A stretch of 64,000 nt of DNA from Malacoraja senta. Lineage: Eukaryota. The position numbers were made by a program, and so were the translations under genes. Position 1 is the stretch's first letter, and the number at the start of each line of letters is the position of its first letter. The stretch lies in the NCBI GenBank assembly GCA_038087875.1, contig CM075989.1, positions 19,284,001 to 19,348,000 on the forward strand. The letters run 5' to 3'. The notes under the pieces are model-generated. The model made no database searches. It was not told the origin of the DNA and saw only the letters and a list, made by a program, of their open reading frames with translations. Shown piece by piece: positions 23-63,417 of the stretch.

Positions 23-219
23 AAAAAATGCTGGAGAAGCTCAGCGGGTGAGGCAGCATCTATGGAGAGAAGGAATAGGCGACGTTTCGGGTCGAGAGTC
101 TCGACCCGAAACGCCGCCTATTCCTTCTCTCCATAGATGCTGCCTCACCCGCTGAGTTTCTCTAGCATTTTTTGTCTACCTTCGATTTTACCAGCATCTG
201 CAGTTCTTTCTTAAACTGA
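23..219. mobile_element. Fold-back Penelope-derived short insertion
   Basis: 75-bp inverted arms (23-97 and 99-173); flanking direct repeat agagtgata at 15-23 and 220-228. Confidence 0.75.
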
Positions 220-702: not shown

Positions 703-713
703 GTATGACGGCT

Positions 714-4167: not shown

Positions 4168-4651
4168 GTACGTAGCGATTTGTACGATCAGTTGTGGAAA
4201 TGTATCTAATAAATACACAATGACTCGGTTTACTTAAATGCTCTGACTGCCGTTGAATCACCTTGCTTATTAGCAATATTAGAAGATGGACACAGGATGC
4301 TGGAGTAACTCAGCGGGACAGGCAGCATCTCTGGAGTGAAGGAATGGGTGGCGTTTCAGGTCGAACCGCTTCTTCAGACGATATAAGATAAATCAGTCTG
4401 AAGACGGGTCCCAACCTGAAACGTCACCTATCCATGTTCTCCATGGATGCTGCTTGACCTGCTGACTCCAGCACTTTGTGTCTTTTTTGTGTATTATCCA
4501 GCAACTGCAGTTCTTCATTTCGAAGGCAAATTGGTGTAAGATTTCATACTGTGTAAGGATTGGTTCTTAATTCCTGACAAACTGTTGGGATTTAATGTTT
4601 GATCAGATGGATTATACGCAACCATGGGTATTAATAAGCACACATTTTAGT

Positions 4652-4856
4652 TAGACAAAAGTGCTGGAGAAACTCAGCGGGTGCAGCAGCATCTATGGAG
4701 TGAAGGAAATAGGCAACGTTTCGGGCCAAAACCCTTCTTCAGACTGCCCGAAACGTTGCCTATTTCCTTCGCTCCATAGATGCTGCTGCACCCGCTGAGT
4801 TTCTCCAGCACTTTTGTCTACCTTCGATTTTCCAGTTTCTGCAGTTCCTTCTTAAA
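4652..4856. mobile_element. Fold-back Penelope-derived insertion
   Basis: Inverted arms 4652-4726 and 4746-4820; imperfect flanking repeat cacattttagtt / cacgttttggtt. Confidence 0.75.
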
Positions 4857-6672: not shown

Positions 6673-6759
6673 CAATGTTTGTATCGACCTTCATTATTTT
6701 TCTGCAATGGGAAAATTGGAATGAAAGCCTCGTTACTAACAGTCTCGTGTCACAAATAG

Positions 6760-7042
6760 TTTCAGGTATGTTGGAACACGAGACTATCCAGGGAGTGTCG
6801 GGACTGAAGCCCACAGGTCTGCGGAAGAGGACCTCCAGTGTTGCAGATGAAGGGATGTACACTCTGGACTCCATCGTTCGTCAGCTCAATAACTTCCATT
6901 CAATTATGTGCCAGCATGGCATGGACCCTGAACTCATCAAGCAAATCGTCAAGCAGATGTTCTACATCATTGGCTCGGTCACCCTGAATAACCTGCTGCT
7001 CCGCAAGGATATGTGTTCCTGGAGCAAAGGAATGCAAATCAG
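6760..7042 (+). CDS. MYO5A: Myosin VA exon, start of the DIL domain: (V)[26 protein letters not shown]...[19 protein letters not shown](R)
   Basis: Flanked by tag and gtgagt; 283 nt, phase 1/2; contains the RKRTSS phospho-loop and the NNLLLR motif. Confidence 0.96.
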
Positions 7043-7189
7043 GTGAGTCATTAGAGTCGTACAGCACGGAAACAGGCCATTCGGCCCAACTTGTCCATGC
7101 CAACCAAGATACCCTATCTACACTAGACATCCCAGTATTTGGCCCATATCCCTCTAAACCTTTGTTTAAGAACTTAAGAGTTGAAGTGC

Positions 7190-7548
7190 TCAGCACTTCA
7201 ACTCCCCCTCCCATTCCAAATCTAATCTTTCTGTTCTGGGCCTCCTCCCTGGCCAGAGTGAGTCCCACTGCAAATTGGAGGAGCAGCACCTCATATTTCG
7301 CTTGGGTAGTTTACACCCCAGCGGTATGAACATTGACCTCCAATTTCAGGTAGTCCTTGCTTTCTCCCTCCTTCCCCTTCCCCTTCACAGCTCTCCCACA
7401 GCCTACTGTCTCCACCTCTTCCTTTCTTCTTCCCGCCCCCACCCCCACATCAGTCTGAAGAAGGGTCTCGACCCGAAACCTCACCTATTCCTTCGCTCCA
7501 TAGATGCTGCTTCACCCGCTGAGTTTCTCCAGCATTTTTGTCTACCCT
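7190..7548 (+). mobile_element. Penelope-like element 3' end: GIY-YIG C-terminus followed by the terminal repeat with a hammerhead-like motif
   Basis: HFNSPSHSKSNLSVLGLL...KLEEQHLIFRLGSLHPSGMNID, then a pyrimidine tract, then CTGAAGAAGGGTCTCGACCCGAAAC at 7455. Confidence 0.78.
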
Positions 7549-9174: not shown

Positions 9175-9349
9175 GTACAACGTGAGCCAACTGGAGGAGT
9201 GGCTGAGGGACAAGAACCTGCAGACCAGTGGTGCCAAGCAAACTCTGGAGCCTTTAATCCAGGCCGCCCAGCTGCTGCAGGTGAAGAAGAAGACTGATGA
9301 AGATGCAGAAGCTATCTGTTCAATGTGCAACGCTATCACTACTGCCCAG
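9175..9349 (+). CDS. MYO5A: Myosin VA DIL exon: [58 protein letters not shown]
   Basis: Flanked by cag and gtaagc; 175 nt, phase 2/0; branch-point-like CTAAC at 9133-9137. Confidence 0.96.
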
Positions 9350-10362
9350 GTAAGCCACAAACAAATAAGGACACAAAATGCCAGAGTAACTCAGCGGGAC
9401 AGGCAGCATCTCTGGAGAGAAGGAATCGGTGACGTTTCAGGTCGAGACCCAGGTGGATCTGTGTGTCACGAGCTGGTTGCAAGGACATGTTCACCAACGT
9501 ACAGATGTGTTGGCAGTGCCACCTTTTCCACAGTTTAAGACAAATATTAATATTTAGCAAAAGGGAGTTTCTGTGAGTGTAGTGACTGAGCTGGTGGAGT
9601 GATCTTCAGCCCAGCACATTCAAGACATCATCCTGCCTTCTGCTTCCAGCCATCAAAGATCTTTTGTGGTAAATAGATGAATATTTCAATGTGTAATTTT
9701 AAGGCAGAGATATAGATGGATTCTTGGTTAATAGGGGTGTCAGAGGTTGTGGGGAGAAGGCAGGAGAATGCGGTTAGGAGGGAGAGATAGATCAGCCATG
9801 ATTGAATGGTGGAGTAGACCTGATGGGCCAAACGGCCTAATTCTGCTCCTATCACTTATGACCTTATGTAATACTGAAGCACACACCTGAATAGAACGTG
9901 GAACAGTACCGTGTGTAGAAACAAAGAACTGCAAATGCTGATTTATACCAACGAGAAACACAGACTGCTGGAGTAATTCAGCGGGTCAAGCAGCATCTCT
10001 GGCAAAAATTGCATGGATTGCGTATCAGGTCTCTTGCACCTCCATCTTCACTTCAGTCTGAAGAAAGGTCCCGACCCACTTCATCACACATCCTTTTTCT
10101 CCAGAGATGTTGTTCGACCCCCTGAGTTATTCCAGCACTTTTCTTTTAAAATCTTTTTATTCTTTTTTTTTTTCGTAAACAAAAACAAAGCAACAAAAAA
10201 AACGAATAATGATAAACATAACAATAATATTGATACATAGGGATCAGGATTACATTAATAACAGGTATAACCTAAATATGAGTCCGGTGTCAAAATACAC
10301 ATTGAATATAGACCTCCTGGTCTCTATGTAAATATAGTTAAATGTTTAAAAGAAAACTTATA

Positions 10363-10872
10363 TACTGACAGTCATTCACTCCACAGAATACAGCGCATTG
10401 TCTCCAAGGCCTCTAGGATCATCAACTCTCCCCTTCCCTCAATCCATTCCATTTACCTCCAACGTACCTCAAAACGGGCAACAAAGATCATCTCGGACCC
10501 CTCCCATCCAGCAAACCACCATTTCCAGTCTCTCCCTTCAGGGAGGCGCCTTAGGTCACTTGCTACAAAATCCACCCGTTTTAAAAACAGTTTCTTCCCC
10601 TCAGCAATAAGAACACTTAATTCCCTCCAATAACTTTTTGACTTTGATGTATACAGTGTCTTGTCTATGGTTTTTGTCTGTTCTTTTGCACTATGTATTG
10701 TTGGTGAGATTTGTGATTTGTGATGTGGTATGGATGCACTTTATTATTATGATCTGTGTTGTTATTAGTGTTAATGTTGTAAAGCAGTGTACCATCATGT
10801 ACCGAACCCAATTACCACCAACCCTGGTCGTGTGGCAAATAAAGATTCTATCTATCTATCTATCTATCTATC
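10363..10872 (+). mobile_element. Rex1/Babar-like LINE 3' fragment with (TATC)n tail
   Basis: Reads ...LPSIHSIYLQR...KIISDPSHPANHHFQSLPSGRRLRSLATKSTRFKNSFFPSAIRTLN; AATAAA followed by (TATC)n. Confidence 0.75.
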
Positions 10873-11587
10873 TTAAAAAAAACAAAAAGATAAAAAGAAA
10901 AAAAAGGAAAAAAAGAGAAAAAAGGAAAAAACAAAACCCCCCTAAACTAGAAAAAAAAAGCAAAACAGAATCTGGGCTGCAAAGAATTTCAACAATTTAA
11001 GTCCCTGTTAGTCGTCAAGTCCGTTCCACTGTATAAAGGTAAAAGAATTATTATAACATTTGTGTCTATCTTTGGTAGAACAGTACAGCACAGGAACAGG
11101 CCCTTCGGCCCGCAATGTCCGTGCCAAACATGATGCCGTGTTAAACTGATCTCCTCTGCTTGCACGTGATCACTATCCCTCCATTCTCTGCATGTCCAGG
11201 TGCCGATCCAAAGGTCTATTGAACGTCACTATCGTATCTGCCTCCACAACCTCCACCCCTGACAGCACGTTCCAGCACCCACCACTCTCTGTGTACTTGG
11301 GCTGTGGGTAGAGTGATTCCATTAGATAATGGGTCTCTCTGACCCCAAACCTCCTTCATTCAGTTCAAGGGACGATTATAGATGGGGAGTGAGTTAATTA
11401 TGGTTTGCATTGTCTTCCCAACTGAAGCCAAACAATGCAGATGTCAGAATTGTGAAACAAAACAGCGGGTACTCAGCGGGTCAGGCAGCATCCGTGGAGA
11501 AAGAACCCACTAATGTTTCATTTCCAGGCCCTGATGAAGCATACTGGATCTAATAGGTTAACTTTTCTTTCCATAGATGCGACCATT

Positions 11588-12015
11588 AGACATAGGAGCA
11601 GAATTAGGCCATTCGGCCCTTCAAATCTACTCCCCCACTTAATCATGGCTGATCTATTTTTCCCTGTCAACTCCATTCTCTTGCCTTCTCCCCGTAACCT
11701 TTGACGCCCTTGCTAGTTAAGAACCTATCAATCTGCGCTTTAAAAATACCCAATGCCTTGGCCTCCGCAACCTTCTTTGGCAACGCATCCCATAGATTCA
11801 CCACCAGATTCTGGCTGAAGAAATTCCTCCTCATCCCTAGTCTAAAGGTGCATCCTTTTATTCTGAGGCTGTGCCCTCTGGTCCTAAACTCTCCCACTAC
11901 AGGAAACATCCTCTCCACATCCACTCTGTCCAGGGCTTTCATTATTCGGTGGGTCTCAATGAGATCCCCCACTCATCCTTCTGAACTCCAGCGAGTTCAG
12001 GCCCAGAGCCGCCAA
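11588..12015 (-). mobile_element. CR1-clade LINE 3' fragment
   Basis: GDLIETHRIMK...RTRGHSLRIKG...VVNLWDALP. Confidence 0.85.
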
Positions 12016-12278
12016 AGGCTTCTGTGCAGCTGAGTGCTTCAAGCTTTAAGATGTATTAGTTCAATAATGTTTTTCCAGCACATTGGCAGCAGCTCGTGTG
12101 AATCTTTTGATATTGGGAATGGCGTAATAATAGAAATGAATTAAGTGAGGATGTCATGAATAATTTCGTCAGGAAGAGTTGGATTCCAACAGGTAATCAA
12201 ATGAACTTATTCCCACAGGTTTTTCTGCATATGGTAAACCCATGTCATGGTAACTGCATTTCTTTGTTTCTTTGCCAG

Positions 12279-12359
12279 ATTGTTAAAGTCTTAAATTTAT
12301 ACACTCCCGTTAATGAATTTGAAGAACGTGTAACTGCCTCATTCATACGCACGATTCAG
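12279..12359 (+). CDS. MYO5A: Myosin VA exon: [27 protein letters not shown]
   Basis: Flanked by cag and gtaaga; 81 nt, phase 0/0. Confidence 0.96.
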
Positions 12360-14881
12360 GTAAGACTGTAATTCTCGTACCAATATTGGTGTGTTGCTTC
12401 TTTTATTTGTGTTGAGATGTGGCTCCCATTGACAAAGACAGTGCTACTGTGATCCCCTAAATGCCCTGCAGGAGGTGGCGATGAGCTCCCATCTCAAACC
12501 GCAGGGGCATAGTTTAGTTTCGAGATATAGAGCAGAAATGGGCCCTTCCGCCCACTGAGTCCGCACCGACCAGCGATCCCGCACACTGACACTATCCTAC
12601 ACACACTGGGGACAATTTTACATGAATACTATGCCAATTAACCTACAAACCTGTACGTCTTTGGAGTGTGGGCGGAAACCGAAGATCTCGGAGAAAACCC
12701 ACGCAAGTCACGGGGAGAGCGTACAAACTCCGTACAGACAGCACCCGTAGTCAGGATCGAACCCAGGATCTACCGCTGCGCCACTGTGTACCACCCTCTG
12801 AGTTCCTCTGGTGAATGTACTTCCATGGTGATATTGGGTGGGGAGTTCAAGCATTTAGACTCTACGACACTGAAGGAAGGGCAACACAAGAGCAACAGGT
12901 TAATTGGCTTCGGTATGATTGTAAATTGTCCCTAGTGTGTGTAGGATAGTGTTAGTGTGTGGGGATCGCTGGTCGGCGTGGGCCGAAGGTTCTATTTCCG
13001 CGCTGCATCTCTAAACTAATTTAAACACCTTAGTCGGGATGGTATTTGTTTTGGAGGGGACCCTCTATGTTGTGTTCTACTGGTTTGGAAGGTGCTGTTG
13101 GCACGGCCCAGTACACATTGGCAATAGACACACACAACAGCTCCATGGCACCAGGGGTGGAGGGAGCAAAGAGTTAGGGTGGATGGGCGTCAATCATTGG
13201 GGCTGATTCATTCTCCACCATATTAAGGGTCCATGTACTGTCAACAATTTTAACTTTGAAAACGCTACAAAAGGGACGTTGGCATGTTTAATAGGAACAC
13301 TTCATCATTAAGGCTTATTCAATTGAATCGATTGAAAGATGCAGCATTCAAACAGGCCCTTCGGCCCGCCGAGTCCATGCTGACCATCGATCACCCATTC
13401 ACACTAGTTCTATGTCATCCCACTTTCTCATCCACTCCCTGCACACGAGGGGCAATTTACAGAGGCCAATTGAACCTACAAAACCTGCACGTCTTTGAGA
13501 TGTGGGAGGAAACCAGAGCACCCGGAGGAAACCCACGAGGTCACGGAGAATGTGCAAACACCACGCAGTCAGAACCCGATGTCAGGACCAAACCTGAGTC
13601 TCTGGCACTGTGAGGCAGCAGCTCTACCAAGCGTGCCAGTCTACTTCTTTGGGGAAGTGTTACAGTATATTCAAGCCATCGAGCTGTACAGCATGGGAAC
13701 AGGTCTTTTGACCCACCTTGTCCACTTTATCAATGGGACTACCACTGATAGTTGAGTTATACTTTATCATGAATTTGTTAACATACATGTGACCTGAAAA
13801 AGTAAAAACACCATCTGATCTTTGAACTTCTTGCTGATTAACGATGGAATTTAAAAGTCAAAGTGCAGTCAAATTTAGACGTCATGCAAAATTGGACCCA
13901 AATTTGTGCCCACTCTCATGGATATGTTCCTTCAAAGCAAATGGGTAGTAATCAGTTATTCTAACATATTATTTCCTTTGGTAAACTATCAGGAAAACCT
14001 CTCATGAAAATATGTAGATTCTAGATTCAAGAGAGTTTATTGTCATGTGTCCCAGATAGGACAATGAAATTCTTGCTTTGTTTGCTTCAGCACAACAGAA
14101 TATAGTAGGCATAAATACAGAACAGATCAGTGTGACCATACACCATTGAATATATATATACACATACATAAATAAGCAGATAAAATGTAATGGGCTATTA
14201 ATGTTCAGAGTTTTGTTTGCGTTGAGTTTAATAGCCTGATGGCTGTGGGGAAGCAGCTATTCCTGAACCTGGATGTTGCAGATTTCAGGCTCCTGTACCT
14301 TCTACCTGAAGGCAGCCGGGAGATGAGTGAGTGGCCAGGATGGTGTGGGTCCTTGATGATGCTGTTAGCCTTGTAATATTGCATGTTCCCTTCTGACTAG
14401 AAATTAAAAAGTATGTATTTTGGTATGTTTTTCACAATCATCAGAATTTATAGATTAGTTTAGTTTTTAGAGGTACAGCTTGGAAACACCCCCCCCCCTC
14501 ACCGAGTCAATGCCAAGTCAATGCCTACTATTCCACCCTACACACTAAGGGCAATTTACAGAAGCCAATTAACCTATAAACCTGAACGTCTTTGGAATGT
14601 GGGAGGAAACCGGAGCACCCGGAGAAAACCCACGCGGTCACAGGGACACTGTACAAGCTCCGTACAAGACAGCACCCATAGTCAGGATCAAACCCGGGTC
14701 TCTGGCTCTGTAAGACAGCAACTCTATTTACCTTCCTTTCAATGTCTGAATTTTTTTTTTTTTTTTTTTTTTAAACGTACAGAGATCTGAAACCTATGGG
14801 GAGTATTTGTAAACTCCGATTGCGTTAAGACTCCGACAATACTAATCCATTAATTTTTTTTTATCCCCTCTCTCTCTCCAG

Positions 14882-15034
14882 GTGCGTTTACAAAATCGAA
14901 AAGACTCTCCGCAGTTGCTAATGGATGCGAAACACATATTCCCCGTCACGTTCCCGTTCAATCCATCTTCTTTAGCGCTTGAAAGCATTCAGATTCCAGG
15001 CAGCATGAACCTTGGTTTCCTGTTACGTGTGTGA
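14882..15034 (+). CDS. MYO5A: Myosin VA terminal coding exon: [50 protein letters not shown]
   Basis: Strong polypyrimidine tract plus cag; 153 nt ending in TGA; matches the recalled MYO5A C-terminus ([29 protein letters not shown]). Absent from the ORF track. Confidence 0.96.
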
Positions 15035-17275
15035 GGAGAAGGTTCTGGAAAACTAGCGATCACATCCATCCGTTACACACAGCTAGAGCAGTGGCGAAGC
15101 ATCTGTTAACAAGGAATGTACATTGAAAATAAATGCCAAACACTTTCATGCAACTCCAGTAAATATCCAGTGATGACTGCTCTTGTGCAGTTTCAGTGAA
15201 TATACTTCAAATTTACAACTGTAAATTAGGTCACACCATACCCGTTAGATATCTACCTAAGGGGAATACAACTGCCTGATATAGCATCATTTTGTCGAAT
15301 AACTCTTATGTAAGGTCTATATACAAATGATGTAGAATACAAAGCTCTGTTAGAATATAATCTAGAGATTACATTGTTGGTGTTTACATAGCCAATTATG
15401 ATGGTAATCTGTCCAGTGTCCCTTTAATATGTTGAGCTGCACACATTTGACAGCAGACAGTGTAACGTCAAGATGTCACTAAAAATATAACACGTCTCCA
15501 TTATGCATTTATCAAGCCCGTTTTAAACTGATTCACATGTAGTTAACATTTTAAGGTCCAATTCTGGCAAAGCACAAAAGCGCTGAAAAGTAATCAAATT
15601 CTCAGATGGATATTTGGCAACAGATTAAAAATATAGCCAGTTGAAAAAAAACTTTTTTTTTTTTTGCAGTATTTGGCACAATATCGTTTGGCCTTTTAAA
15701 TACTCTCCTGTTGGAATCTGTGGAGACTTCACAATACAGGACTTGCTCTTTAATTTGTTTGTTACTGTGTATATTAGGGTTAAAGATGACAATTGTAAAC
15801 AAGCTGAGTAGAAGTATTTTTTTTTTCTCCAGTATTTTCAGCATTTTTCAGTATTTAGTGACGTTCGAGTCAAGTTACATGCAGGTTGCAGTAGTTAAGA
15901 TGCAGGCATCAATCTCACTAGACAGCTTTCATTCCACTGTCCCAATGGCTTCGGATGTTGTTCTATAGAATCAATTCTGGGAGGTCTTACTTTAAAGGAC
16001 AATAGGTACTCTGAATTATAAATTTGATTTAAAATGTCACTTCATGGTGGCCAAAATGTATACACTTGTTCTACCCTTCATTGTTTACATATTTTAAGTT
16101 ATTTAATTCATGAACCAACCAGCCAATTTCAGAAATCTGGTTTCAGGACAATGGTTTACAAGTCTCTATGGTGTATTATATGTGCCTATTTATAGTCCTG
16201 GTAATATATAACTGAAAGGTGTATGGTATTTCAAAGTCTCACAGGGTAGAAGTTAATATAATACCCTGTATACATCTACAGAGTCCTTTATTTCATCCAC
16301 AAAGATTATTGAAAACAAATCAGACTATATATTAAAGATAGACACCAAACGCTGAAGTAACTCAGCGGGACAGGCAGCGTCTCTGGAGAGAAAGAATGGG
16401 TGACATTTCGGGTCGAGACCCTTCTTCAGATTGAAACATTGACTGAAACTATACTGAATATTTGATTTGCTCATGACATGTAGTGGATTTTGCAGTTATA
16501 CACATTTCAGTCTTTACGTCTTAACGGACAAAGTTCCCCAGAGCCTTACAGATGTTTGCTCAATTCACCGAAAATAACATATTTCAAAAGCATAATAAGC
16601 TTTGGGCAATCTTTAAAAAAAAAAAAAAGTGGCTTTTTGTCAAGAGAGCAGAAACTGCGTAGACAGAACGGATTTAAGTTTAAAAAAAAACATTGTCTGG
16701 GAAATTGGTAAAGTCCAAGTTACTGGTTGCCGCTCCTCAACACTGTCTCCTCCCAAAACCAGTACTTTCATTTTAAGCCATTTTGACAAATTCTGGGTTT
16801 AGAAAGTGAAACTTTAGAATTGATTTAGAATACGATGAGTAACTAAATTGCTGAACAAAATATGAAGGTCATATTCCTTTGAAATATCATTTATGCACTT
16901 TATAGTTTTGCCCCACATATATATCGTCTCAAGTTTTCTGCTTTATATGGCTTTTTACTTCTTTGTATCATAAAACGTACGTACATTACTCGCGGTTAGT
17001 GTTAAGAAGCTAGAGATATTTAAATTATCGGCAGTGGTCATGGAAGAAAACGTGTGTTGCTATAGTATGTTGTTGAGGGACATTGACCTGAAAACCTATT
17101 GTGTTTAACCAGGTAGTAAACACTAAGTATGATATTGATGTACAGAAAAATTCAGAAAACACTAGTCTTTCCCGTTTGTAGCAATTAGTCATTGTGTGCA
17201 TTATGGCAAATGTATATTGACTTAGGAAATTAATGTCCAACTTGTAAAAATAAAAATTTCAACACTATGAACTGG
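15035..17275 (+). other. MYO5A: Probable MYO5A 3' UTR
   Basis: AT-rich, repeat-poor stretch after the stop; AATAAA at 15128-15133 and at 17249-17254, the latter followed by a T-rich tract. The end is inferred. Confidence 0.55.
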
Positions 17276-17391
17276 CTTCTTTTTTATGGTTTAAATCTGT
17301 CGAATTTGTAAATTTATTTATGAATGCAAGCATTGCAGAAAAATACTACTTGGCTGCAATACTAATGAATTGTCATTTCAGGTGGCATTTA

Positions 17392-17423
<32 letters not shown>

Positions 17424-19769
17424 CTTTATTAATCCCTTTTCAGGGGAAATTCAGATGTCCTTGCAGCACACGAATACAAATACAACATAGCATTAAAGAA
17501 GAAGTTTAACATTAAAACATAAAAACATCCCCCCACAATGGTTCCCACTGTAGGGGAAGGCACAAAGTCCAGTCCCCATCCCCATGTTCACCCATAGTCG
17601 GGCCTATTGAGGCCTCCACAGTCACCGCTACGGAGGCCCGATGTTTCAGGCCCTCTCGCCGGGTGATGGTGCTCCGGATTCGGGAGAACCCTCTCAGCGG
17701 CTTGGGGTGTCTGGAACGGCCGCTTCCTAACCGGAACATTTAAAGTCGATACTGAGTCTGAAGTTAGTGTGTAATGCATGAGTGGGGTCATTAATTAGGA
17801 GGGGTCAAGGAAAGAGTGTTCACGTCGCGGCCCTGTTTCCACCAATCTTTCCACCGCCACGCACAAGAAGCGCAAGATAGACGCCATTGTATGCAAATGC
17901 CGAGACGTGTGTTCAGCTCTGGCTGAACAATTTCTAATCTTGTGACATGGACTCGATAAGATTAATTAGCAACAAAAAACAAAAAAAACCGGGTGGAGGA
18001 ACTCAGCGGGTCAGTCAGCAATCTGTGGAGGGAATGGACAGCTGGTATTCCAGATTGGGAACCCTTCTTCAGACTGATGGAGATGGGGGGGGGGAAGAGA
18101 AAGTTGGAAAAGAGAGATGGGGGTGGGGCAAAGCCTCAAGTGATAGGTGGATACAGAGAGGGGGAGGGGGGTGGCAGATGTGGAGTGAATGACAAAGGGT
18201 AGAGGTGAAAAGGAAACAAAAAGTTATCAGATAAGAATTCCCTTATCCCCTATGGGAATCCTCTATTTCCCTTTTATCATCCTCTTTCTCCTCTTCTCCC
18301 CTCGCCCCTTTCCATCCACATCCATCCATCTGGCTTTACAGTACCCTCCTCTTTCCTAATCAGTAAAACAACAAAAAAGCCCCTCTTTATCTTTAAACTC
18401 TAATCCCTTTGCAATGAAGGCCAAATTGCAGTTTGCTTCCTGAGCTCGTTGAACCTGCCCGCTAGGTTTTTGTAATTCACGCACTAGACAGTGCACATAG
18501 ATCCCTCCACTTCATTCAGTCGCAGCCTCTCGCCATCTACATAATAATCTGCCTTTATGACTTCTCTGACCTTACACATCCCGACATTAAAGTCCATTTG
18601 CAAGTATTCTGTCCACTCACTCCATCTACATCTGCCTATGTCCCATTGTAGAATCATGGTACCCTTCATAACAAACAAAAAAAGACACAAAGTGCTGGAG
18701 TAACTCAGAGGGTCAGGCAGCATCCCTGGAGAACATGGATAGGTGATGTTTCGGTTCATGACCCTTCATCAGACTGATTATTGTGGTGAAGAGAGAGATG
18801 GGGGCAGGACGAAGCCTGGTGAGTGATAGGTGGATACAGGTGCGGAGGGGGTTCGATTGGTAGATGGTTGGACAAAAGCCAGAGATTAAAAGACAAAAAG
18901 TGTGAGACCTTTATCCAACCATCTGCCAACCTTCCAACTTTACCCCAACCACAGTGAAGAAGGATCCTAACACAAATTGTCACCTATTGTCACCTTTGAT
19001 GTACGGGTGTCAAGAGTTGTGGGGTGAAGGCAGGAGAATGGAGTTGAGAGGGAAAGATAGATCAACCATGTTTTGAATGGCGGAGTAGACTTGATGGGCC
19101 AAATGGACCAATTCTGCTGCTACAACATATGAACCATCATTGTTCCCCAGAGATGCTGCCTGACTCGCTGAGTTACTCCAGCACTTTGTCTTTTTGTTGT
19201 TGTTGCATAAACCAGCATCTACAGTTCCTTGCGCACCCTTCATTGCAAACGGGACGATTCTAACAAAAGTGGCTCTGACCTGAAACATCATCTCTATTTC
19301 TCCTTCCACAGATGTTGCTTGATCTGCTGGATGTTCCACCATTTTGTGGGGGGGGTTTCAGCATCTGCAGTGTTTTAATTTTTCAACGACAGTGAATTGC
19401 CCCCCTGACTAACAACACGTCCTGACCTATGCACTCCACAACAGACAGCTTGGGTCCTGGACCCAATCACCACACTTCTCGCATTAAGAGAGTCTCCAAG
19501 GCATCAGATAATTGCTCCAATTTGCTGACATACCCAACTCAAGCACACCTCATCCTTAAATTATATTGCACTTTAGCAATGTTGAATAAAGACACAAAAT
19601 GCTGGAGTAACTCACCAGGACAGGCAGCATCTCTGGATAGAAGAAGTGGGTGACATTTTGGGTCAAGACCCTTCTTCAGACAGTCAGGGGAGAGGAAAAC
19701 GAGAGATATGAAAGGGTAAGGTGTGAAAACAAGAGATCAAAGGGAACTAAGTTGAAACTCTGAATAGGC

Positions 19770-20085
19770 AACTGAACACCTACGCTCAGTCTGCCTTGGC
19801 CTCCCAGTTGCCAAACATTTTAACTCCCCTTCCCACTCCCACACTGACTTTTCTGTCCTGGGCCTCCTCCACTGTCAGAGTGAGGCCAAATTCAAATTGG
19901 AGGAACACCTCGTATTTACACCCCAGTGGCATGAATATTGATTTTATATCCAGCTTCAAGTAACCCTTACATCCCCTTTCTCTTTGTCCCTGCCCCACCA
20001 TAGTCCTCTTGCTAATTTCACCATTTGTATTCCTTTGTTGGCACCACCACCCAGCCAACAATGGACCATTGTGGGCTCCACCTTT
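19770..20085 (+). mobile_element. Penelope-like GIY-YIG C-terminal remnant
   Basis: LPVAKHFNSPSHSHTDFSVLGLLHCQSEAKFKLEEHLVF...PSGMNIDF. Confidence 0.75.
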
Positions 20086-20089
20086 CCAA

Positions 20090-20499
20090 GAGTCAAGAGT
20101 GTTTTAATGTCATATGTCCCGGACGGGGACAATGAAATTCTTACTTGCTGCAGCACAACAGAATATGTGAATATGTAAACATAGTTCATAATGGGGGAAA
20201 AAATAAAAAGTTCAATAAATAGTGCAATAATAATATAGTGTTTTGCAGTTCAGAGCTCAGAGCTTATTCGTTGTGTTTAATAGCCTGATGGCTGTGGGGA
20301 AGAAACTGTTCCTGAACCTGGACATCACAGTTTTCAGGCTCCTGTACCTTCTTCCTGATGGCAGTGGTGAGATGAGTGTGTGGCCAGGAGGATGGTGTGG
20401 GTCCTTGATGATTTTGGCTGCCCTTTTGAGGCAGCGACTACGATAGATCCCTTCGATGGTGGGGAGGTCAGAGCCGGTGATGGCCTGGGCAGTGGTCAT
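20090..20499 (-). mobile_element. Rex1/Babar-like LINE 3' fragment
   Basis: LPTIEGIYRSRCLKRAAKIIKDPHHP...LPSGRRYRSLKT...RFRNSFFPTAIRLLN; related pieces near 3030, 14230, 27210, 37700 and 52350. Confidence 0.8.
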
Positions 20500-20936
20500 T
20501 ACTTTTTGTAGCTCATCGATGCAGGCTCTGCTTTTGTTCTGTACCTTCCCATACCTCTAGTTTCCCACTCCCTGACTCTGTCTGATGAAAGGTCACCTAA
20601 TCCTTCTCTCCAGAAATGCTGCCTAACCCGCTGAGTTACTCCAGCATTTTGTGTCTGTCTTTGCTGTTCATTATTACACTGCCAAGTGGCAATAGGTTGA
20701 TGCAAGATCACTAAGTTATGTTGCTGTAACATCTTACAAATTATGTTTTTGAGAGAAAAAAACGTTGCCTTTCTTAAAAGAAAGAGATCGTGTTTTCTTT
20801 TGAAGGACATTATTTTCAATGTGTCGGAAAGAACTGCAGATGCTGGTTTAAATCGAAGGTAGATTTCGAAAATGCTGGAGTAACTCAGCGGGACAGGCAG
20901 CATCTCTGGAGAGAAGGAATGGGTGATGTTTCAGAC

Positions 20937-20970
20937 GGTCTGAAGAAGGGTCTCGACCCGAAACGTCACC
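20937..20970 (+). ncRNA. Candidate minimal type I hammerhead ribozyme (best-preserved copy)
   Basis: ggt-CTGAAGA-A-GGGT(CTCG)ACCC-GAAA-CG-TC-acc: both catalytic boxes, stem II, palindromic ACGT in place of stem III, 3-bp stem I (ggt/acc). Confidence 0.65.
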
Positions 20971-21559
20971 CATTCCTTCTCTCCAGAGAAGCTGCCTGTC
21001 CCACTGAGTTACTCCAGTATTTCTGTGTCTGGTCTACTCGCGGGCTGTGAAAGTTAATACTGTTATCCGATTTGAGGTCTTTGTAAACGGGATACAAGGC
21101 ACAGGCGTCGTGGACTTTTTAAGAAGATGGAATGACATGTTATTAAAATTGATTTAATACGACTATTTAAACGGCACGAAGACAAAGCAAGTTACTGCTA
21201 AAATACTCTCTGCTAAGCTTTTTACACACAAATTCGATAAACTTTTGGGGACTTACTAATGTTACTTTGTAATGTTACTTAAAGCATTACAGCCAATTTA
21301 GTGGGACTTGCATGGATCTTGCAAAGTTACGCAAGTGTGACTGTGGTGTATTTAATCTGGAGTGATATGTTATATTTTAAATGCTAAATTGCCTTATCTC
21401 ACGCCTCACTTGCACACCGTGTCCTTATCAGAAGTTTGAAGGGTTAAATGCGAGTGTTTTTTTTCCCTCACTGCCTTGTTCCGACCTACCTGCCACTTAC
21501 AGGAGTTAGTTACAGGCACTCCCTCGGTCACGAGGTCGTGTCTGCAAGAGAGAGATTCA

Positions 21560-21725
21560 GACTTGGGGAAGCTGAGCCGGATTGCTTTCCGTGTGTTTGT
21601 GTGTCTAAAACAGGCAGAGAGAGAGAGAGAGGGGACTGGGAAGGCGGGGCAGGTGGATTTGAGCGTCCAGCCCGGACCATGAACCAGTCTCCCCGGCGCT
21701 TGTTGGAACAACCTTCCCTGTGACC
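21560..21725 (+). promoter_or_regulatory. MYO5C: Putative MYO5C proximal promoter / 5' UTR
   Basis: Locally GC-richer unique sequence; (GA)n run, GC box GGCGGGGC at 21643-21650, E-box CAGGTG at 21650-21655, directly upstream of the ATG. Confidence 0.5.
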
Positions 21726-21752
21726 ATGGCAGTGGCTGAACTGTACACCAAG
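21726..21752 (+). CDS. MYO5C: Myosin VC first coding exon: MAVAELYTK
   Basis: Kozak context gaccATGG, 27 nt, donor AAG|gtaact. Human MYO5C begins MAVAELYTQ and MYO5A begins MAASELYTK; position just downstream of MYO5A matches the known tandem. Confidence 0.88.
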
Positions 21753-22375
21753 GTAACTCCATTCTCTGCACTTCCTCTGCGCTCCCGCACCAAAGCTAAA
21801 CAAGTTTTTGATTCCCCTATGCATGATTGTGTTTATGATTTGACTGGCTTGTGTGGAACGCAAAGCATTTCACTGCAAGCAGGTGTAGGTGACAATAAAA
21901 CAGCAATTGAACAGAAACCTTTACAGTTGAATCCTGCATTAAAGTGGCAATGCAAGGAACGTTTCCAACCACACTGCCCCATGTAGTTTCCAAGTGAGTT
22001 GAACTTGTTGCTGGGAAGTGGGTCAGGTGCTCGATTTCACCTGACATATGCAACGCGGCTGTGAAGTTGTCTTTATGTTTGAAGGTTCGGTGTTGTTAAA
22101 GCAACTTTTTAATCCATGGCTTTCCCTGTGGTCGGTGTGACTGTCTGTCGGGGAGAGTGGTGGCTTTTCACGCGTGTTCGGGTGCATTGGCAGAGAGTCA
22201 GAGGCATGACGTTAGCTGGCTGCTGGAACAGGATGCTGCAGCAGTGAGAGCGAGCGGCTGTTTCCCTCTGAATGGACAGTTCAACAATACATTGAGCCCT
22301 CGTTTGACGGGAGGGAGGGTGTAAAAGGGACTTGGGAGCGCCGGTGCAGGATCCCCAAAAAGTTAATTTGTGAAT

Positions 22376-23047
22376 CAATAGACAACAGGTGTAGGAGTAG
22401 GCCATTTGGAGCCAGCACCGCCATTCAATGTGATCATGGCTGATCATCCCCAATCAGTACCCCGTTCCTGCCTTCTCCCCATTTCCCCTGACTCCGCTAT
22501 TTTTAAGAGCCTCTCTCTTGAAAGCATCCAGAGAACCTGCCTCCACCGTCCTCTGGGGCAGAGAATTCCACAGACTCGCCACTCTGTGGAAAAAAAAAGT
22601 GTTTCCTGGTCTCCGTTCTAAATGGCTTACTACTTATTCTCAAACTGTGGCCCCTGGTTCTGGACTCCCCCAACATCTGGAACATGTTTCCTGCCTCTAG
22701 TGTGTCATAGCCCTTAACAATCTTATATGTTTCAATGAGATTCCCTCTCATCCTTCTAAACTCCAGGGTGTACAAGCCCAGCTGCTCCATTCTCTCAGCA
22801 TATGACAGTCCCACCATCCTGGGAATTAACCTTGTAAACCTACTCTGCACTCCCTCAATAGCAAGAATGTCCTTCCTCAAATTAGGGGACCAAAGCTGCA
22901 CACAATACTCCAGGTGTGGTCTCACTAGGGCTCTGTACAACTGCAGAAGGACCTCTTTGCTCCTATATTTGATTCCTCTTGTTATAAAGGCCAACATGCC
23001 ATTCGCTTTCTTCACTGCCTGCTGTACCTGCATGCTTACTTTCATAG
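22376..23047 (-). mobile_element. CR1-clade LINE 3' fragment in MYO5C intron 1
   Basis: [49 protein letters not shown]... Confidence 0.92.
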
Positions 23048-23360
23048 GTACACAAAAATGCTGGAGAAACTCAGCGGGTGCAGCAGCATCTATGGAGCGA
23101 AGGAAATAGGTAACGTTTCGGGCCGAAACCCTTCTTCAGACTGATGAACCAGGATCCCCAGATCCGATACGATACGAATACAGATTTGATACGAATCGAC
23201 TCGGTAGTAAGGAAGGTGAATGGGATGCTAGCATTTATTTTTCGAGAGGTGGGCGCGGCTGTAAAGTTGGTTCGATCCTGACCACGGGTGCCGTCTGTAT
23301 GGAGTTTTGTACGTTCTCCCCGTGACCTGCGTGGGTTTTCCCCGGGATCCCTGGTTTTCT

Positions 23361-24550
23361 CCCACACTCCAAAGACATACAGGTGTGTAGGTATACCATC
23401 GGTCTATTTCCACTCACCGATTGCTGGAAGCGCAGGAGGTTGAGGGGGTGATCATATGAAGGTGTAGCAGATTATAGGGGAAATAGTGGTCCATAGAACA
23501 CAGATTTAAGGTGAGAGGGGAAAGATTTACTAGGAACCAGAGTTTTTCACACAGAGGATGGTAGCATACAGGTGTGTAGGTATACAGGTGTGTAGGTATA
23601 CAGGTGTGTAGGTATACAGGTGTGTAGCTATACAGGTGTGTAGCTATGCAGGTGTGTAGCTATGCAGGTGTGTAGCTATGCAGGTGTGTAGCTATGCAGG
23701 TGTGTAGCTATGCAGGTGTGTAGCTATGCAGGTGTGTAGCTATGCAGGTGTGTAGCTATGCAGGTGTGTAGCTATGCAGGTGTGTAGCTATGCAGGTGTG
23801 TAGCTATGCAGGTGTGTAGCTATGCAGGTGTGTAGCTATGCAGGTGTGTAGCTATGCAGGTGTGTAGGTATGCAGGTGTGTAGGTATGCAGGTGTGCAAG
23901 TATACAGGTGTGCAGGTAGAATTGGCAGGTAGAAATCCCACACTCCAAAGACATACAGGTGTGTAGGTATACCATCGGTCTATTTCCACTCACCGATTGC
24001 TGGAAGCGCAGGAGGTTGAGGGGGTGATCATATGAAGGTGTAGCAGATTATAGGGGAAATAGTGGTCCATAGAACACAGATTTAAGGTGAGAGGGGAAAG
24101 ATTTACTAGGAACCAGAGTTTTTCACACAGAGGATGGTAGCATACAGGTGTGTAGGTATACAGGTGTGTAGGTATACAGGTGTGTAGGTATACAGGTGTG
24201 TAGCTATACAGGTGTGTAGCTATACAGGTGTGTAGCTATATACAGGTGTGTAGCTATACAGGTGTGTAGCTATGCAGGTGTGTAGCTATGCAGGTGTGTA
24301 GCTATGCAGGTGTGTAGCTATGCAGGTGTGTAGCTATGCAGGTGTGTAGCTATGCAGGTGTGTAGCTATGCAGGTGTGTAGCTATGCAGGTGTGTAGGTA
24401 TGCAGGTGTGTAGCTATGCAGGTGTGTAGGTATGCAGGTGTGTAGGTATGCAGGTGTGTAGGTATGCAGGTGTGTAGGTATGCAGGTGTGTAGGTATGCA
24501 GGTGTGCAGGTATACAGGTGCGCAAGTATACAGGTGTGCAGGTAGAATTG
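23361..24550 (+). repeat. Tandem duplication (unit of about 576 bp), each copy holding a 16-bp minisatellite CAGGTGTGTAG(C/G)TAT(G/A)
   Basis: Sequence from 23361 recurs at 23937; arrays at about 23565-23917 (about 22 units) and 24141-24543 (about 25 units). Confidence 0.95.
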
Positions 24551-25471
24551 GCTTGGTATAATTGTAAATTGTCCCTAATATGTGTAGGATGGTGTTAGTG
24601 TGCGGGGATCGTCGGTCAGTGCGGACTCGGTGGGCCGAAGGGCCTGTTTCCGCGCTGTATCTCTAAATTAAACCAAATAACTAGTATGTAATGCTGAGGC
24701 TTTATAAGGTGCTGGTCAGACTGCATTTGGAGTATTGTGTGCAATTTTGGGCCCCATATTGAGGAAGGATGTGCTGGTGCTGGAGATGGTCTAAAGGAGA
24801 TTGACGAGAATGATCCCAAGAATGATTGGGTTAATGTATGATGAGCGTTTGATGGCACTGGGCCTTTGCTCACTGGACTTTAGAAGGGTGAGGGGGGAAC
24901 ACATTGATACACCGAATAGTGAAAGGCCCGGATAGAGTGGACGTGGAGAGGATGTTTCCACTAGTGGGAGAGTCTAGGACCAGAGGCCATAGGTCTCAGA
25001 ATTCCTTCTCTCCATGGGTGCTTCCTCACCTGCTGAGTTTCTCCAGCATTTTGTGTCCACCTGGCAAGTGATAGATTAGCACAGGTGAAGGAGGGAGGGT
25101 ACTTGGCAGTGAAAATGGCACCAAGGACTTTGGATGTTTTTTTGCACAAGCATTAGGTTTATTAATTAATTTTATTTTTATGATATGTTATCTCCCATAT
25201 AGACACTAGGAACTGCAGATGCTGTGGGGGGGTTTTAAGCCAAAAAATGCTGGGATAACTCAGTGGTTCAGGCAGCATCTCTGGAGAACATGAAGAGATG
25301 ATGTTTCAGGTCAGGATCCCTTTTCAGAATCTTTAGTCTGAAGAAGGGTCCTGACCCGAAATGTTCCTTCCACAGATGCTAATATATATTCACCCTTCTT
25401 CAGACTGTTTAAACACATTTTCTCATCCCAATCACGAGTACCTATTCAAGTTCATGATGAGCACCCTCCTT

Positions 25472-25778
25472 TGTTTAGTTTGGGTTAGAAATATAGCGTG
25501 GAAACGGGCCCTTCGGTCCACCGAGTCTACGCAGACCAGCCATCCCCGTACACTAACACTATCCTATACACACTAGAGACAATTTTACGGGTATACCAGG
25601 CCAATAAACCTACAAACCTGGACGTCTTTGGAGTGTGGGAGAAAACCGGAGGGAGGTCCCTGAGAAAACCCACGCAGGTCACGAGGAGAATGTACAAACT
25701 CCATACAGACAGCACCTGTGGTCGGGATCGAACCCAGGTCTCTGGCGCTGTAAGGCAGCAACTCTACCACTGTGCTAC
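25472..25778 (-). mobile_element. V-SINE (HE1-like)
   Basis: Full head, V-domain and tail; similar copies at about 12510-12790, 13335-13635 and 14455-14727. Confidence 0.8.
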
Positions 25779-26148
25779 CTAGTCCTTGCTGTGAAGAACT
25801 TGCTATGACATGAGTGACATGCCGACTGAGGTTCCTTTCCTTGTCGATCTTCTCAGTGGAATGGTTTCACCTTGTCATCCCATTGTAGCCCGGCCTGTTT
25901 AGCAATGGTGACTCACTCAATCACTGCACCTTTTCATCTGCGGTGATCTCAAGTCTTTTACACTTGCCACTTTTCTATGACTCATCTACAAACCACACCT
26001 AGGCAACACTATTCACAGACTGCACGGGGCCACTTTCCCAAACATTTATGGCAGTCACTTAGTTTAGTTTAGAGATACAGCGCAGAAAAAGGCCCTTCGG
26101 CCCACTGAGTCCATGCCGACCAGGGATCCCCACACACAGAGGTCTCAT

Positions 26149-26795: not shown

Positions 26796-29700
26796 CTAGA
26801 TTAAGTGCAAAACAAGCTGATTAAACATCCAGCAGATCTCAAGCTATTAGAAACAAAGTTAGCATCAGATTTGTCTACGCACCTTTCACACAAAGGGTGT
26901 ATGGACCAAGCTGCCAGAGGAGGTAGTTGTGGCAGGGACTATTGCAATGTTTAAGAAACATTTAGACAGGTACATGGATATGACAGGTTGAGAGGGATAT
27001 GGGCCAAACGCAGGCAGGTGGGACTAGTGTAGATGGGACAAGTTGGGCCGAAGGGCCTGGTTCCACTCAGTATGACTCTACGACCTACTTGGAAACATAG
27101 ATATTAATGATCTTGATAACTTTTGGTATGCTTCCCAAAAGAGTAGTTATGACCCATAACTCAAAGAAAGTAGTATTACACAGCTGCCTTTACTGAAGAA
27201 TATACATTTGAATGTTGAAGTCACCATTACACTCGGATGCATCACAGCATGGTTTGGGAACAGCTCCATCCAAATCTACAAGAAATTGCAGAGTCGTGGA
27301 CGTACCCAGACCATCATACAAACCAAGCTCCCTTCCATTGACTCTTTTTACACTTCACAGTGCCTTGGCAGGGCCACCACCATAATCAAGGATGTCTCAC
27401 CCGTCACTCCCTCTTCTCCCTTCTCCCATCATGCAATAGGGACAGAAGTGTGAAAACGCCTACAACCAGAATCAGGGACAGTTTCTTCCCAGCTGTATCA
27501 GGCAACTGAACCATCCTACCAACGACTAGAGAGTGGTCCTGAACAACTATCTACCTCATTGGAAACCCTCAGACTATCTTTAATCGGAATTAATCTTGCA
27601 GTAAACATTATTCCCTTTATCATGCATCTGTACACTGTGGATGGCATGATTGTAAACATGTATAGTCTTTTCACTGACTGGTTAGCATGAACATAAGCTT
27701 TTCACTCTCCCTCAGTACATGTGACAATAAACTAAACTAAACAAATTTGGCTGAGGTAAGTCTTTAGTTCAACACATGTTCCGGAAGACCATACAATTCA
27801 TTGGGCACTGAATTTATATTGGATTTATCCCAAAATACAGAATTTATGTCAATTTGGCATCATGGATATTGTGGGATATAGTTTTTCTACACAGAGAGCA
27901 AACCAGTTCTTGGATTTTCAGACCTTGTACTCCAATAGCATTTTCTGCCTTTATCAACAAGACCAAAAAGCTGCATCACCTGCTGTCTTCATGCTTTTTA
28001 AACAACTTTCAACTCATTTTTCTATTTATTCTCCTTTATCCTTCAATTATCCAGTGTGGAACTTGAAAATGGCCAAAATCCATGTCGACTACATCCAATA
28101 TATTCCCCTTATTAATTAAGTCTACAAATATAGCCCGACATAACCATTCATTTTTTGGCAAATTCCAAGTTATTCCTGTCTACTGCCATTGACTGGTCTT
28201 TAAAATGTTCCCACAAATGGCATGAATGCCTGCAATTACCCAGACCAAAATAAAGTAAAATCCGAGCCACACTCGGTTTTTGGCTCACATAAACACTAGG
28301 TGGAATTTTAATCATTCCAAGCACATGGTATAATTTCTTTCTCGTTTCCCTTCGAATCCTAACAGACATCCGGTTGAACCCTGGAAACACATCATCCCCT
28401 TGCCAAATGTATCTTTCTAAAAATTATTTAATCATGATATCATTCAACTTGCTGTCACCTAAGTCAGCATTCATCATCTCTTAGATATCCCTTTCTTCTC
28501 TAAAACACCAAACATCAAATTTCGTGCTACTTTCATTTTGAGCATTATCTGCTAATTAACAACGTGGAATTTTGCAATGTTCTGGCCTATATTAAGATGT
28601 CAATGAACATCACTCATACAGTCCAAATGTCTTAATGTTATTGAAGCACAAGGAATTACAGCTGCTGGAATCTTGAGCAAAGAAAACAAACTGCTGGAGG
28701 AACTCAGATGGTCATGCAGCATCTGTGGAGGGAACTAACTGACAGGCAACGTTTCGGGTCGAGACCATTTAGACAGAGATGTGCTGTTTCGGGTCAGGAT
28801 CCATTTTAGGACTCTAAAGAAGCGTGCTGACCCTAAATGTCATCTGCCCATTCCCTCCATGAATGTTGCCTGACCCGATTATTCCTCCAGCACTTTTGTA
28901 TTTTGGTTTTAAATGTGTCATTGGTGTCTTGGGACCTTTCTATGTATAAATTTCATCAGTAATATGAAAATGACAATTGGCAGGAAGTACTTTGGGATCT
29001 GTTGAGATTTTATAAGGTGCTCCAAAAGTGCACGATTTTTAATACATTGAGAAACCATCGTAAATCCACATGGTGCTGTGAATTTCTTCTTCTGTCTCGG
29101 CAGTTTTCTGCAGTTCTTGTCCACGTGAGTAAGCTGTCACGTTTAATTAATGTGGACCTGGACCAGTGAAACCATTACCAGCAGTTTGATTGAAAATGCT
29201 GGATCTAAACTCAGTGTTGTAAAGTTGTACGTTTTGCAATTGCAGAAAATTGTTTCCCTTGAGGCTCGTGCGAAGTCTTGAGAATTACATAAATCTCTTT
29301 TTATTTGAAGTTAAAATCTCAGATTGCTTCCAAAACGGATCTGAAAGAAGGGCTGCATCAAACTTAAATATATGAAATATAAGGCACATCCACAACTGCT
29401 GCAGGGACTTTGCCTACTTTCTATCTTATATTTGGGGTGTATTTTAACAAACCTTAAAATTTAAGGCTATGGCATTTAACCTCGAGTCCAACTGCATATG
29501 TAGTTGTAGGAAGGAATGTAGGAAGACCTGCTGGTTTACACCGAAGATAAAAGCAAAATGCTGGAGTAACTCAGCGGGACAGGAAGCATCTCTGGAGAGC
29601 AGGGATGGGTGGCGTTTTGGGTCGAGACCCTTCTTCAGACTTCTGAAGAATGCAGAATTCTCCATCATTGTGTATACCTACATATGATCTAATTATATAT

Positions 29701-36279: not shown

Positions 36280-36282
36280 TTA

Positions 36283-61916: not shown

Positions 61917-62129
61917 CACACAATGCTGGAGTAACTCAGGCAGCATCTCTGGAGAGAAGGAATGGGCGACGTTTCGGGTCGAGACCCTTCTTCAGTCTTC
62001 AGTCTGAAGAAGGGTCTCGACCTGAAACGTCACCCATTCCTTCTCTCCGGAGATGCTGCCTGTCCCGCTGAATTACTCCAGCATTTTGTGTCTACTTTCA
62101 ATTTAAACTAGCATCCGCAGTTCTTTCCT
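61917..62129. mobile_element. Fold-back Penelope-derived insertion with a 16-bp TSD and two back-to-back hammerhead cores
   Basis: acactatttaggtggc at 61901-61916 and 62130-62145; cores at 61968-61995 (-) and 62004-62031 (+). Confidence 0.85.
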
Positions 62130-63417
62130 ACACTATTTAGGTGGCAATTTTTGTTGTTATTTCTGGTATCAGTGCAATACTAACAGTAGATTTAGTTCAA
62201 GTGAAAAAGATAGTTGATGCTTATTGACGCATTGTGAGTCACAAACTGCACAAGTTTGGAACATGTGTTGGAAGGAACTGCAGATGCTGTACAGCAGGAC
62301 AGGCAGCATCTCTGGAGAGAAGGAATGGGTGACGTTTCGGGTCAAGACCCTTCTTCAGTCTGAAGTTACTCCAGCATTTTGTGTCTATCTTCAAGTTCAG
62401 ATCAGTCGGACACAATAATGTTTATGAGAGAGCATTGGTCTAGTTTGTGAATTCACACTGTACATTGCAAAGCAGCAATTCATAAACTTTGTAGATTGAA
62501 TATTAATACCTATATAGCTCTTGTGCTTAAACCTGTAACATAATAATTGAAGTCAATGGGGTTTACTAACAAGGATTTCTACAAGAAACTATTCAATGTT
62601 TTACCTTTAATTCTGAAGCTGATTTAGTCAAGTTTAATAATCGCCATCTTCTGTTTAAATGGTAGGCTGAAAGGTTTATTTTTTTTACTCTAGCATACAC
62701 CATCCAATTTGTTGTGTATCTTGATCATAATAAGAGTGGAGTTAGAGTCCATTCATTCTTCCTGCCTTCCACCATTCCATATCATAATGAGTCTTTACCT
62801 CAGCCACTTGACTGTACTCACCTCATATCCCTTAATAGCTGAAGATGTATTGATCTGCTTGAGTTTATTCAGTGACTGGGCCTCTTGCATAGAGAATTCT
62901 GAGGATTCTCTAATCTCTGGGTGAAGTTTCTTCATCTTCCAACTTGAATTGTCAACCTCCTATTTTGACACTGAGAACCCCGACACTGAGCAAGAGAAAA
63001 CAGTATTCCACAATCTATCCTATCAATCCACAGAAAAATTGTGCACGTTTTAATGTGATCACGTTTCATTCCACGAAACTCAAGTGCAGCGTATTGGTCG
63101 ATTTGCTTAAACAAGGTATGTGAAAAAGCAATGAGATGAGCAGCAATAATGAGTTTTAAATGACAAGGGAGCAAATTAGGTGATCACCATGTTATGTGTT
63201 GCTTTACTTACTAGTGCAAAGGTACACAAATGAACACATCATATGCTACATGATAAATCAATAAAATGAGTCATTTAGCTTTAAGCAATTCTGAGGACAC
63301 AAAAAAATACAGAGCACAAGGTGAACGAGGGTCTATATTTACTCTAGCAAATGACGAGTCAGTAACTATATATAATTGGAAAATAATTAACATAACGTTA
63401 TAATTATGTTGATTATT

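Follow-up and report, generated by a model that had tools for sequence, protein, structure and literature searches.

The hammerhead motif at positions 20,937 to 20,970 of our window, a 64,000-nucleotide stretch of the Malacoraja senta genome, is best read as a minimal hammerhead ribozyme (min-HHR) in the pseudo-LTR (pLTR) of a Neptune-type Penelope-like element (PLE), with this particular copy being a short palindromic insertion whose ribozyme is predicted to misfold and is likely silent; we put the probability of this reading at roughly 80%. The association of min-HHRs with PLE ends has already been published (Cervera and de la Pena 2014, PMC4209133), and the motif carries little weight as a ribozyme discovery. 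What is added here is an extreme of copy number, with 56,799 intact motifs, and a genomic record that bears on what the hammerhead does for PLEs.

The letters that the initial annotation reported at 20940-20967 of the forward strand, CTGAAGA-A-GGGTCTCGACCC-GAAA-CG-TC, read exactly so in the window (Table 1). With at most one mismatch, the pattern CTGANGA-N13-GAAAC occurs 19 times in the window against 1.5 expected, and none of 100 shuffles reached 19. All 12 places listed for the repeat hold copies of the family, although several are decayed and the one placed at 4716-4743 was drawn one base wide (its C3 is 4742). Only five window copies retain the strict intact pattern (20940, 4742, 23139, 61995 and 62358); elsewhere, GAAA is missing (10058), G12 is gone (29638), a CCTC breaks the palindrome (7455), or GAAAT is found (16429 and 25338). 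The family is indeed the most abundant repeat of the window among dispersed repeats, as the 30 highest self-match peaks all belong to it, and its 42 pieces amount to about 4.3 kb. The proposed stem II stands in its conserved arms but not in its geometry: because a 5-bp stem with a 2-nt loop is sterically impossible, the stem is better read as 4 bp plus a tetraloop, which in this family is CUCG, UUCG, CCCG or CCUG. The GGGT-TTCG-GCCC subfamily is also present, as UUCG/GCCC copies at 4652..4825 and 23048..23144. Of the 2-3 bp suggested for stem I, two are found in the family but the third is not a family feature; among 50 long copies, pair 3 is present in 2% and pair 4 in 4%, and the third pair of the flagged copy stems from a junction base absent from the family consensus.

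Table 1. Family features mapped in the window; positions are counted from its first letter, and a dot marks features spanning both strands.
Feature	Position	Strand	Remark
Minimal type I hammerhead motif	20938..20969	+	agrees with the published min-HHR consensus (PMC4209133, Fig. S3)
Stem I, GU/AC	20938-39 with 20968-69	+	
CUGAAGA core	20940-46	+	
Extra A	20947	+	
Stem II, GGGU/ACCC	20948-59	+	CUCG loop
GAAA	20960-63	+	
ACGU palindrome	20963-66	+	in the place of helix III
Predicted cut	20967	+	after GUC
Short pLTR copy	20938..21030	+	hammerhead and 3' tail, -2 to +90 relative to C3
Inverted arm of the flagged insertion	20821..20936	-	tail +20 to +131 and remnant of core start
PLE GIY-YIG endonuclease, C-terminal fragment	7185..7340	+	5'-truncated element in a myosin V intron
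Pyrimidine-rich 3' UTR, hammerhead (7455) and tail	7341..7546	+	belongs to the 5'-truncated element at 7185
Short pLTR copies, head-to-head pair	4283..4513	.	cores 4377 (-) and 4398 (+)
Palindromic insertion	4652..4825	.	UUCG/GCCC subfamily; core 4742 (-)
Solo short copy	16335..16434	-	start at -1
Solo short copy	23048..23144	-	UUCG/GCCC subfamily; motif intact
Solo short copy	29544..29642	-	G12 lost
Head-to-head pair	61917..62126	.	cores 61995 (-) and 62004 (+)
Short copy	62292..62363	-	motif intact; core 62358

We assign the motif to the min-HHRs because it matches the published consensus (PMC4209133) and lies in a pLTR, not because of covariation in this genome. The core nucleotides C3 U4 G5 A6 N7 G8 A9, G12 A13 A14, A15.1-U16.1 and H17 are all represented, intact in 72 of 158 sampled copies, together with the extra base between A9 and G10.1, the G10.1-C11.1 pair, and a helix II of 4 bp with 88-93% of cells paired. 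Helix III is replaced by a palindromic 15.2/16.2 element, ACGU in all five subfamily consensuses with at least 15 members (k=9), which is predicted to form a 4-bp intermolecular helix of -3.1 to -4.1 kcal/mol. Helix I closes the cut site with only 2 bp, as do those of D. virilis, Culex and Oikopleura in the alignment of PMC4209133. Like the min-HHRs in that alignment, the motif combines CUGANGA-H, G10.1-C11.1 and GAAA-C-G-U-H with palindromic 15.2/16.2 and no helix III, and like them it occurs once per pLTR, mostly as dispersed singles with some opposite-strand pairs; by contrast, its helix II and helix I fall at the short end of the alignment, and the table and alignment consulted contain no cartilaginous fish. 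The canonical type I hammerhead of Rfam, with a 6-bp helix I and loop contacts, does not describe a motif with so short a helix I, and none of the 23 matches (E up to 5) from an Rfam scan of the window is to a hammerhead family, which is unsurprising when helix III is missing. The miRNA-like Rfam matches are palindromic insertions of the family. A generic hammerhead descriptor applied to 844 kb returned 73 matches (reversed control 0), 71 in the main family, and no other hammerhead family beyond two unrelated singletons. A candidate subfamily with a longer stem I (GUC/GAC) was rejected, as its 234 pattern matches mostly carry the motif of the main subfamilies and look like point variants.

The proposal that the motif belongs to a very high-copy, ribozyme-bearing Penelope family is borne out by its linkage to a reverse transcriptase (RT)/GIY-YIG reading frame, by the pLTR architecture and by the number of intact motifs. 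Upstream of the copy at 7455 lies a pyrimidine-rich stretch and, before that, the end of a GIY-YIG-type reading frame. A 52-residue piece of this endonuclease has 70,039 first-look candidates in the genome, and the motif lies 88-127 nt downstream of it in 27 of the 30 best loci, the other three comprising two with deletions in or through the motif and one that is truncated. An N-terminal piece gave 3,182 candidates. Among 14 of these taken at 7 kb, L102-L105 carry the motif at both ends, 3.84 kb apart and each time within direct repeats of 433-440 bp, and L098 and L107 carry a 5' motif. The full-length order is pLTR(HHR)-RT-Cys linker-GIY-YIG-pLTR(HHR); L102-L105 are near-identical (98% where tested), and thus do not represent four independent insertions and may be one segmental family. 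The RT-like frame has atlas neighbours (0.98) with RVT_1/HTH_animal, and Pfam recovers RVT_1 (E 0.0056) and GIY-YIG (E 0.0008), both with scores below the curated cut-offs; a PDB sequence search with the RT found no match.

Between RT and endonuclease, the linker reads CNRRKCYTC (C-X4-C-X2-C), and a CX2-5CxxC linker is a mark of Neptune and Nematis PLEs (Craig et al. 2021, PMC8557442). By the definitions in that paper, the element classifies as Neptune- or Nematis-type, a clade set here by motifs only; Neptune and Poseidon are the only PLEs that have been reported in vertebrates. As in the Neptune endonuclease-bearing (EN+) PLEs it describes, an RT and the linker are followed by a C-terminal GIY-YIG domain with CCHH residues, and the element has pLTRs, an inverted 5'-truncated copy and an optional tail. 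The further hallmarks of EN+ PLEs are likewise present, namely a single RT-GIY-YIG coding region, and partial-tandem pLTRs with HHR, inverted 5' copies and a 30-40 bp tail (further PLE literature: PMC2377424, PMC3846280, PMC6155905). The frames are interrupted in all copies seen, with no uninterrupted full-length ORF among the loci fetched and a longest open frame of 764 aa. Two side observations concern the element itself. At 1950-3070 of locus L101, a PLE copy, an in-frame tandem repeat that encodes (NINTSSNP)n takes the place of the N-terminal region, recalling the asparagine-rich inserts known from Penelope ORFs of rotifers. In all subfamilies, whose 3' UTRs are otherwise different, a CTNAY-like pentamer (CTGAC, CTCAC, CTAAC or CTAAT) lies 5-8 nt ahead of CAG, too close for a usual branch point and possibly part of a promoter.

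Genome-wide, an exact 42-mer of the repeat occurs 4,475 times, and intact core, stem II and NUH occur together in the 56,799 motifs mentioned above, with reversed controls of 0 in both searches. Fifty pieces of 10 kb, taken at round coordinates on large contigs, contain 149 tail copies, 90 of which span the motif; extrapolation from these 500 kb gives about 580,000 tail copies and about 350,000 motif-spanning copies. For comparison, about 4,000 min-HHRs in coelacanth and 9,000 in Xenopus were counted in PMC4209133 by a descriptor other than ours.

The boundaries of these copies offer a modest clue to mechanism. We anchored copies on the 3' tail rather than on the ribozyme, obtaining 406 matches at E < 0.1 in 844 kb (reversed control 0), of which 395 had full context; leaving out a duplicated stretch of the assembly and poorly aligned copies brought the set to 368, and dropping duplicates to 365. 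Their 5' ends concentrate at the ribozyme edge, with 119 of 365 at -7..0 relative to C3 (14.9 per nt); the density is 3.4 per nt over +4..+40, and only 0.6 per nt over -40..-8. Starts at the cut site are at background level: 3 of 365 copies begin at +28, immediately past the cut, and 10 no more than one base away from that position (p 0.57). The DNA ahead of the edge copies is not the element's pyrimidine tract (0.48 vs 0.81), and several of them cleanly interrupt other repeats. Target duplications (TSDs) of 7-15 bp flank 21 of the 97 edge copies that are solo, where controls averaged 1.0, compared with 4 of 75 copies with inner starts and 3 of 26 longer copies. At the other boundary, 3' ends fall at about +92 and +130 (143 of 365 at +88..98 and 70 of 365 at +125..133), and in runs of related organisms, too, loose ends are seen at -6, +92..94 and +128.

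These boundaries are reminiscent of PAc, a Poseidon element of Anolis carolinensis (Frangieh et al. 2024, PMC11167929). There, reverse transcription starts from two internal positions with uncut RNA as its chief substrate, and the ribozyme depends on the protein that the element encodes. Both 3' ends and the scarcity of cut-site starts agree with that scheme: as in PAc, two fixed 3' ends lie 30-40 nt apart in the tail downstream of the HHR, and there is no sign that cut RNA is used. In our element, copies begin just before the ribozyme instead of at its cut site, in agreement with the uncut-RNA template seen in vitro. The two elements nevertheless differ. The one studied here is of Neptune type with a Cys linker, and its ORF starts about 160 nt after C3, whereas the PAc ORF starts in stem II; moreover, the consulted sections of PMC11167929 do not describe for PAc such a sharp clustering of 5' ends at the edge of the ribozyme. 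A literature search by title and abstract start, with Repbase/Dfam and subscription journals outside its scope, likewise yielded no description of the family or of its 5'-end peak.

How might the short copies arise? They are likely to be short cDNAs copied from RNA that had not been cut. Within the autonomous element, folding of the motif would require dimerization, with the ACGU palindrome providing a 4-bp intermolecular helix III, as well as help from the element's own protein, by analogy with the anole PLE. With nicked DNA as primer, RT would start at two internal sites shortly after the ribozyme and copy uncut RNA as far as its probable 5' end, at the initiator-like TCAGTCT overlapping helix I. 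The initiator consensus is YYANWYY. Copying up to this start would produce mini-copies of 95-135 bp, template switches would yield their palindromic versions, and the dispersed copies would be passengers. Tentatively, and at somewhat less than even odds, we go further and suggest that the commonest product of the element is a self-standing cDNA of 95-135 bp that begins at the internal RT starts and stops where uncut RNA has its capped 5' end, at the helix-I initiator, as a Penelope counterpart of retroviral strong-stop DNA. If so, hundreds of thousands of insertions would map a transcription start, the ribozyme would not cut before copying, and the motif may have been kept for a role at the very 5' end of the RNA rather than for monomer release.

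Transcription start at TCAGTCT is the weakest step of this scheme: polyA reads of a related species cluster at no start or end, and stalling or template switching at the same place could give a similar edge. The short copies would then be ordinary 5'-truncated PLE insertions, with RT halting or switching template at the ribozyme edge because of the pyrimidine tract, a bound protein or the TCAG-T-CTGA micro-palindrome, and with no RNA starting there. We regard this as possible but doubtful. In its favor, 127 of 365 copies carry an inverted arm, many joined via GTC or GGGTC microhomology, and the spread of 5' ends over about 8 nt also suits stalling. So does the missing cap signature: the bases before solo copies are 5 G, 5 T and 2 C (n=12), and although G is common before GT at the 5' edge of copies, 8 of 14 G cases among 30 loci examined reflect inverted-arm microhomology, and no cap-derived extra G was seen in the solo copies. 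What speaks for an RNA end is that the peak recurs in all four upstream families despite their differing tracts (71/194, 18/66, 24/90 and 6/15), that 5' ends become so rare upstream of it, and that it persists in non-inverted copies with TSDs.

The edge could instead be a 3' splice site, with short copies derived from spliced RNA, as an intron ends at helix I in D. virilis Penelope. All families have a pyrimidine tract ending in CAG ahead of U-1, and the commonest subfamily has a GT donor-like site at the ORF end, which together with this precedent lends the idea some appeal. It is unlikely nonetheless. With the one donor candidate tested, the exact junction occurs in none of eight genomic copies that have a short distance from ORF end to motif; of 23 junction-pattern matches, the 10 examined either come from a subfamily whose UTR end is its own or have no adjoining ORF end; none of the 15 joints shown is of the GT..AG kind; and TSDs directly adjoin the 5' end, so that an upstream exon would have no place.

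Even less probably, the short copies would form a non-autonomous retrozyme or SINE in its own right, which spreads through its own self-cleaved circular RNA. Their own TSDs and very high copy number fit such a parasite, and non-LTR retrozymes, reported to derive from pLTRs, are similarly non-coding and carry a type I HHR (Li et al. 2026, bioRxiv 10.64898/2026.07.22.740005). Retrozymes, however, form tandem arrays of units each with an HHR. No such array occurs in the window, and the family's copies are instead scattered as monomers or palindromes; among 196 copies, there are only 6 same-strand neighbours at 400 nt or less. In addition, the boundaries lie away from the cut site, and short and long copies share the same subfamilies.

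Do the dispersed copies act as ribozymes? The initial annotation correctly placed copies inside pre-mRNAs: they lie in introns of the myosin-V-like and FAM214A-like genes and appear in the polyA RNA of a related species. Cleavage of host pre-mRNAs by these copies, whether each acts as a monomer or abundant copies pair up as dimers in trans, is nevertheless improbable. The abundance of intact motifs, transcription of the family on both strands inside other transcripts of the relative, the intermolecular helix permitted by the ACGU palindrome and the precedent of a 2-bp helix I in D. virilis Penelope would all allow it. However, introns of three genes show no strand bias (26 sense and 26 antisense copies), nor do core-intact intron copies (7 sense and 8 antisense; a small test of 15 copies in the same three genes). 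In polyA RNA of the relative (X24; about 6% of the run), the pLTR is matched by 9,959 reads, in roughly equal numbers on the two strands. Of these, 93% continue into unlike sequence, and read starts or ends pile up nowhere in the pLTR, cut site included; this negative is a weak one, because of fragmentation and because reads from many copies are mixed together. In published work, min-HHR monomers fail to cut and dimers do so weakly, and the anole HHR depends on the element's protein (PMC11167929). There is no sign of cutting in polyA reads, intron strands or copy 5' ends.

Single copies decay like neutral DNA, which further argues against active dispersed ribozymes. As the initial annotation cautioned, many are decayed: the catalytic G12, which lies in a CpG, is lost in 41 of 158 copies, and fewer than half of the cores are intact. 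Outside CpG, core identity in single copies is 0.944 compared with 0.918 in the tail (p 0.07), a difference biased towards the core by copy selection. Among the five subfamily consensuses, -4..+11 is invariant, and changes between them keep pairs (U-A to U-G; GUC to GUU). Covariation of stems I and II, proposed as evidence for the fold, takes the form of one-sided changes, and 423 of 500 shuffles reach its score; core conservation in excess of the tail, proposed likewise, amounts to 1 of 11 variable positions versus 16 of 58 (p 0.27, or 0.056 without the CpG-decayed G12). With core conservation not significantly above the tail and covariation not above shuffles, selection on the fold is not demonstrated within this genome.

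The setting of the flagged copy makes activity there especially doubtful. Its inverted arm, 20821-20936, is followed by a direct copy running from -2 to +90, and in RNA this arm is predicted to pair with 20960-21030, burying the core in a long hairpin of -134.7 kcal/mol. A hammerhead-compatible fold in this context is predicted to lie 16.6-20.7 kcal/mol above the ensemble. The construct initially suggested for cleavage assays, 20925-20990, is also predicted to misfold, its first 8 bases pairing with GAAACGUC and the hammerhead still 7 kcal/mol off; even in consensus mini-copies the fold is disfavored by a predicted 4-10 kcal/mol. All of these values come from nearest-neighbor folding, which ignores protein help and tertiary contacts.

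The flagged copy lies about 5.9 kb beyond the stop codon of a myosin-V-like gene, in its 3' UTR or in intergenic DNA. The last exons of this gene, which encode a Pfam DIL domain, occupy 540-15030 (+) of the window, with at least seven family copies in the introns; we take the gene to be MYO5A-like. Window positions 14267-26148 repeat, in inverted orientation and at 98.8-98.9% identity, the 12 kb immediately to the left of the window, ahead of a gap at about -350, and the flagged copy is therefore present twice in the assembly. The contig with the myosin Va-like 3' exons looks flipped and duplicated, and is likely an uncollapsed haplotig. A second myosin V gene, presumably MYO5C-like, lies 35-80 kb upstream on the minus strand, and exons of one gene with a 551-codon open frame at 53815-55470, which we assume to be FAM214A/ATOSA-like, span 31400-55470 (-). 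A weak Rfam match to the CPEB3 ribozyme lies at 17790-17852 (+), at 24.8 bits compared with a gathering score of 35 (E 0.03). The window also contains 3' ends of LINE reverse-transcriptase genes, presumably L2-like and CR1-like, at 36134-36835 (+), 779-1279 (-) and 22503-23135 (-), and a 16-bp minisatellite of about 61 copies at 23561-24538, inside a local duplication of 570 bp in which the two assembly copies are not alike.
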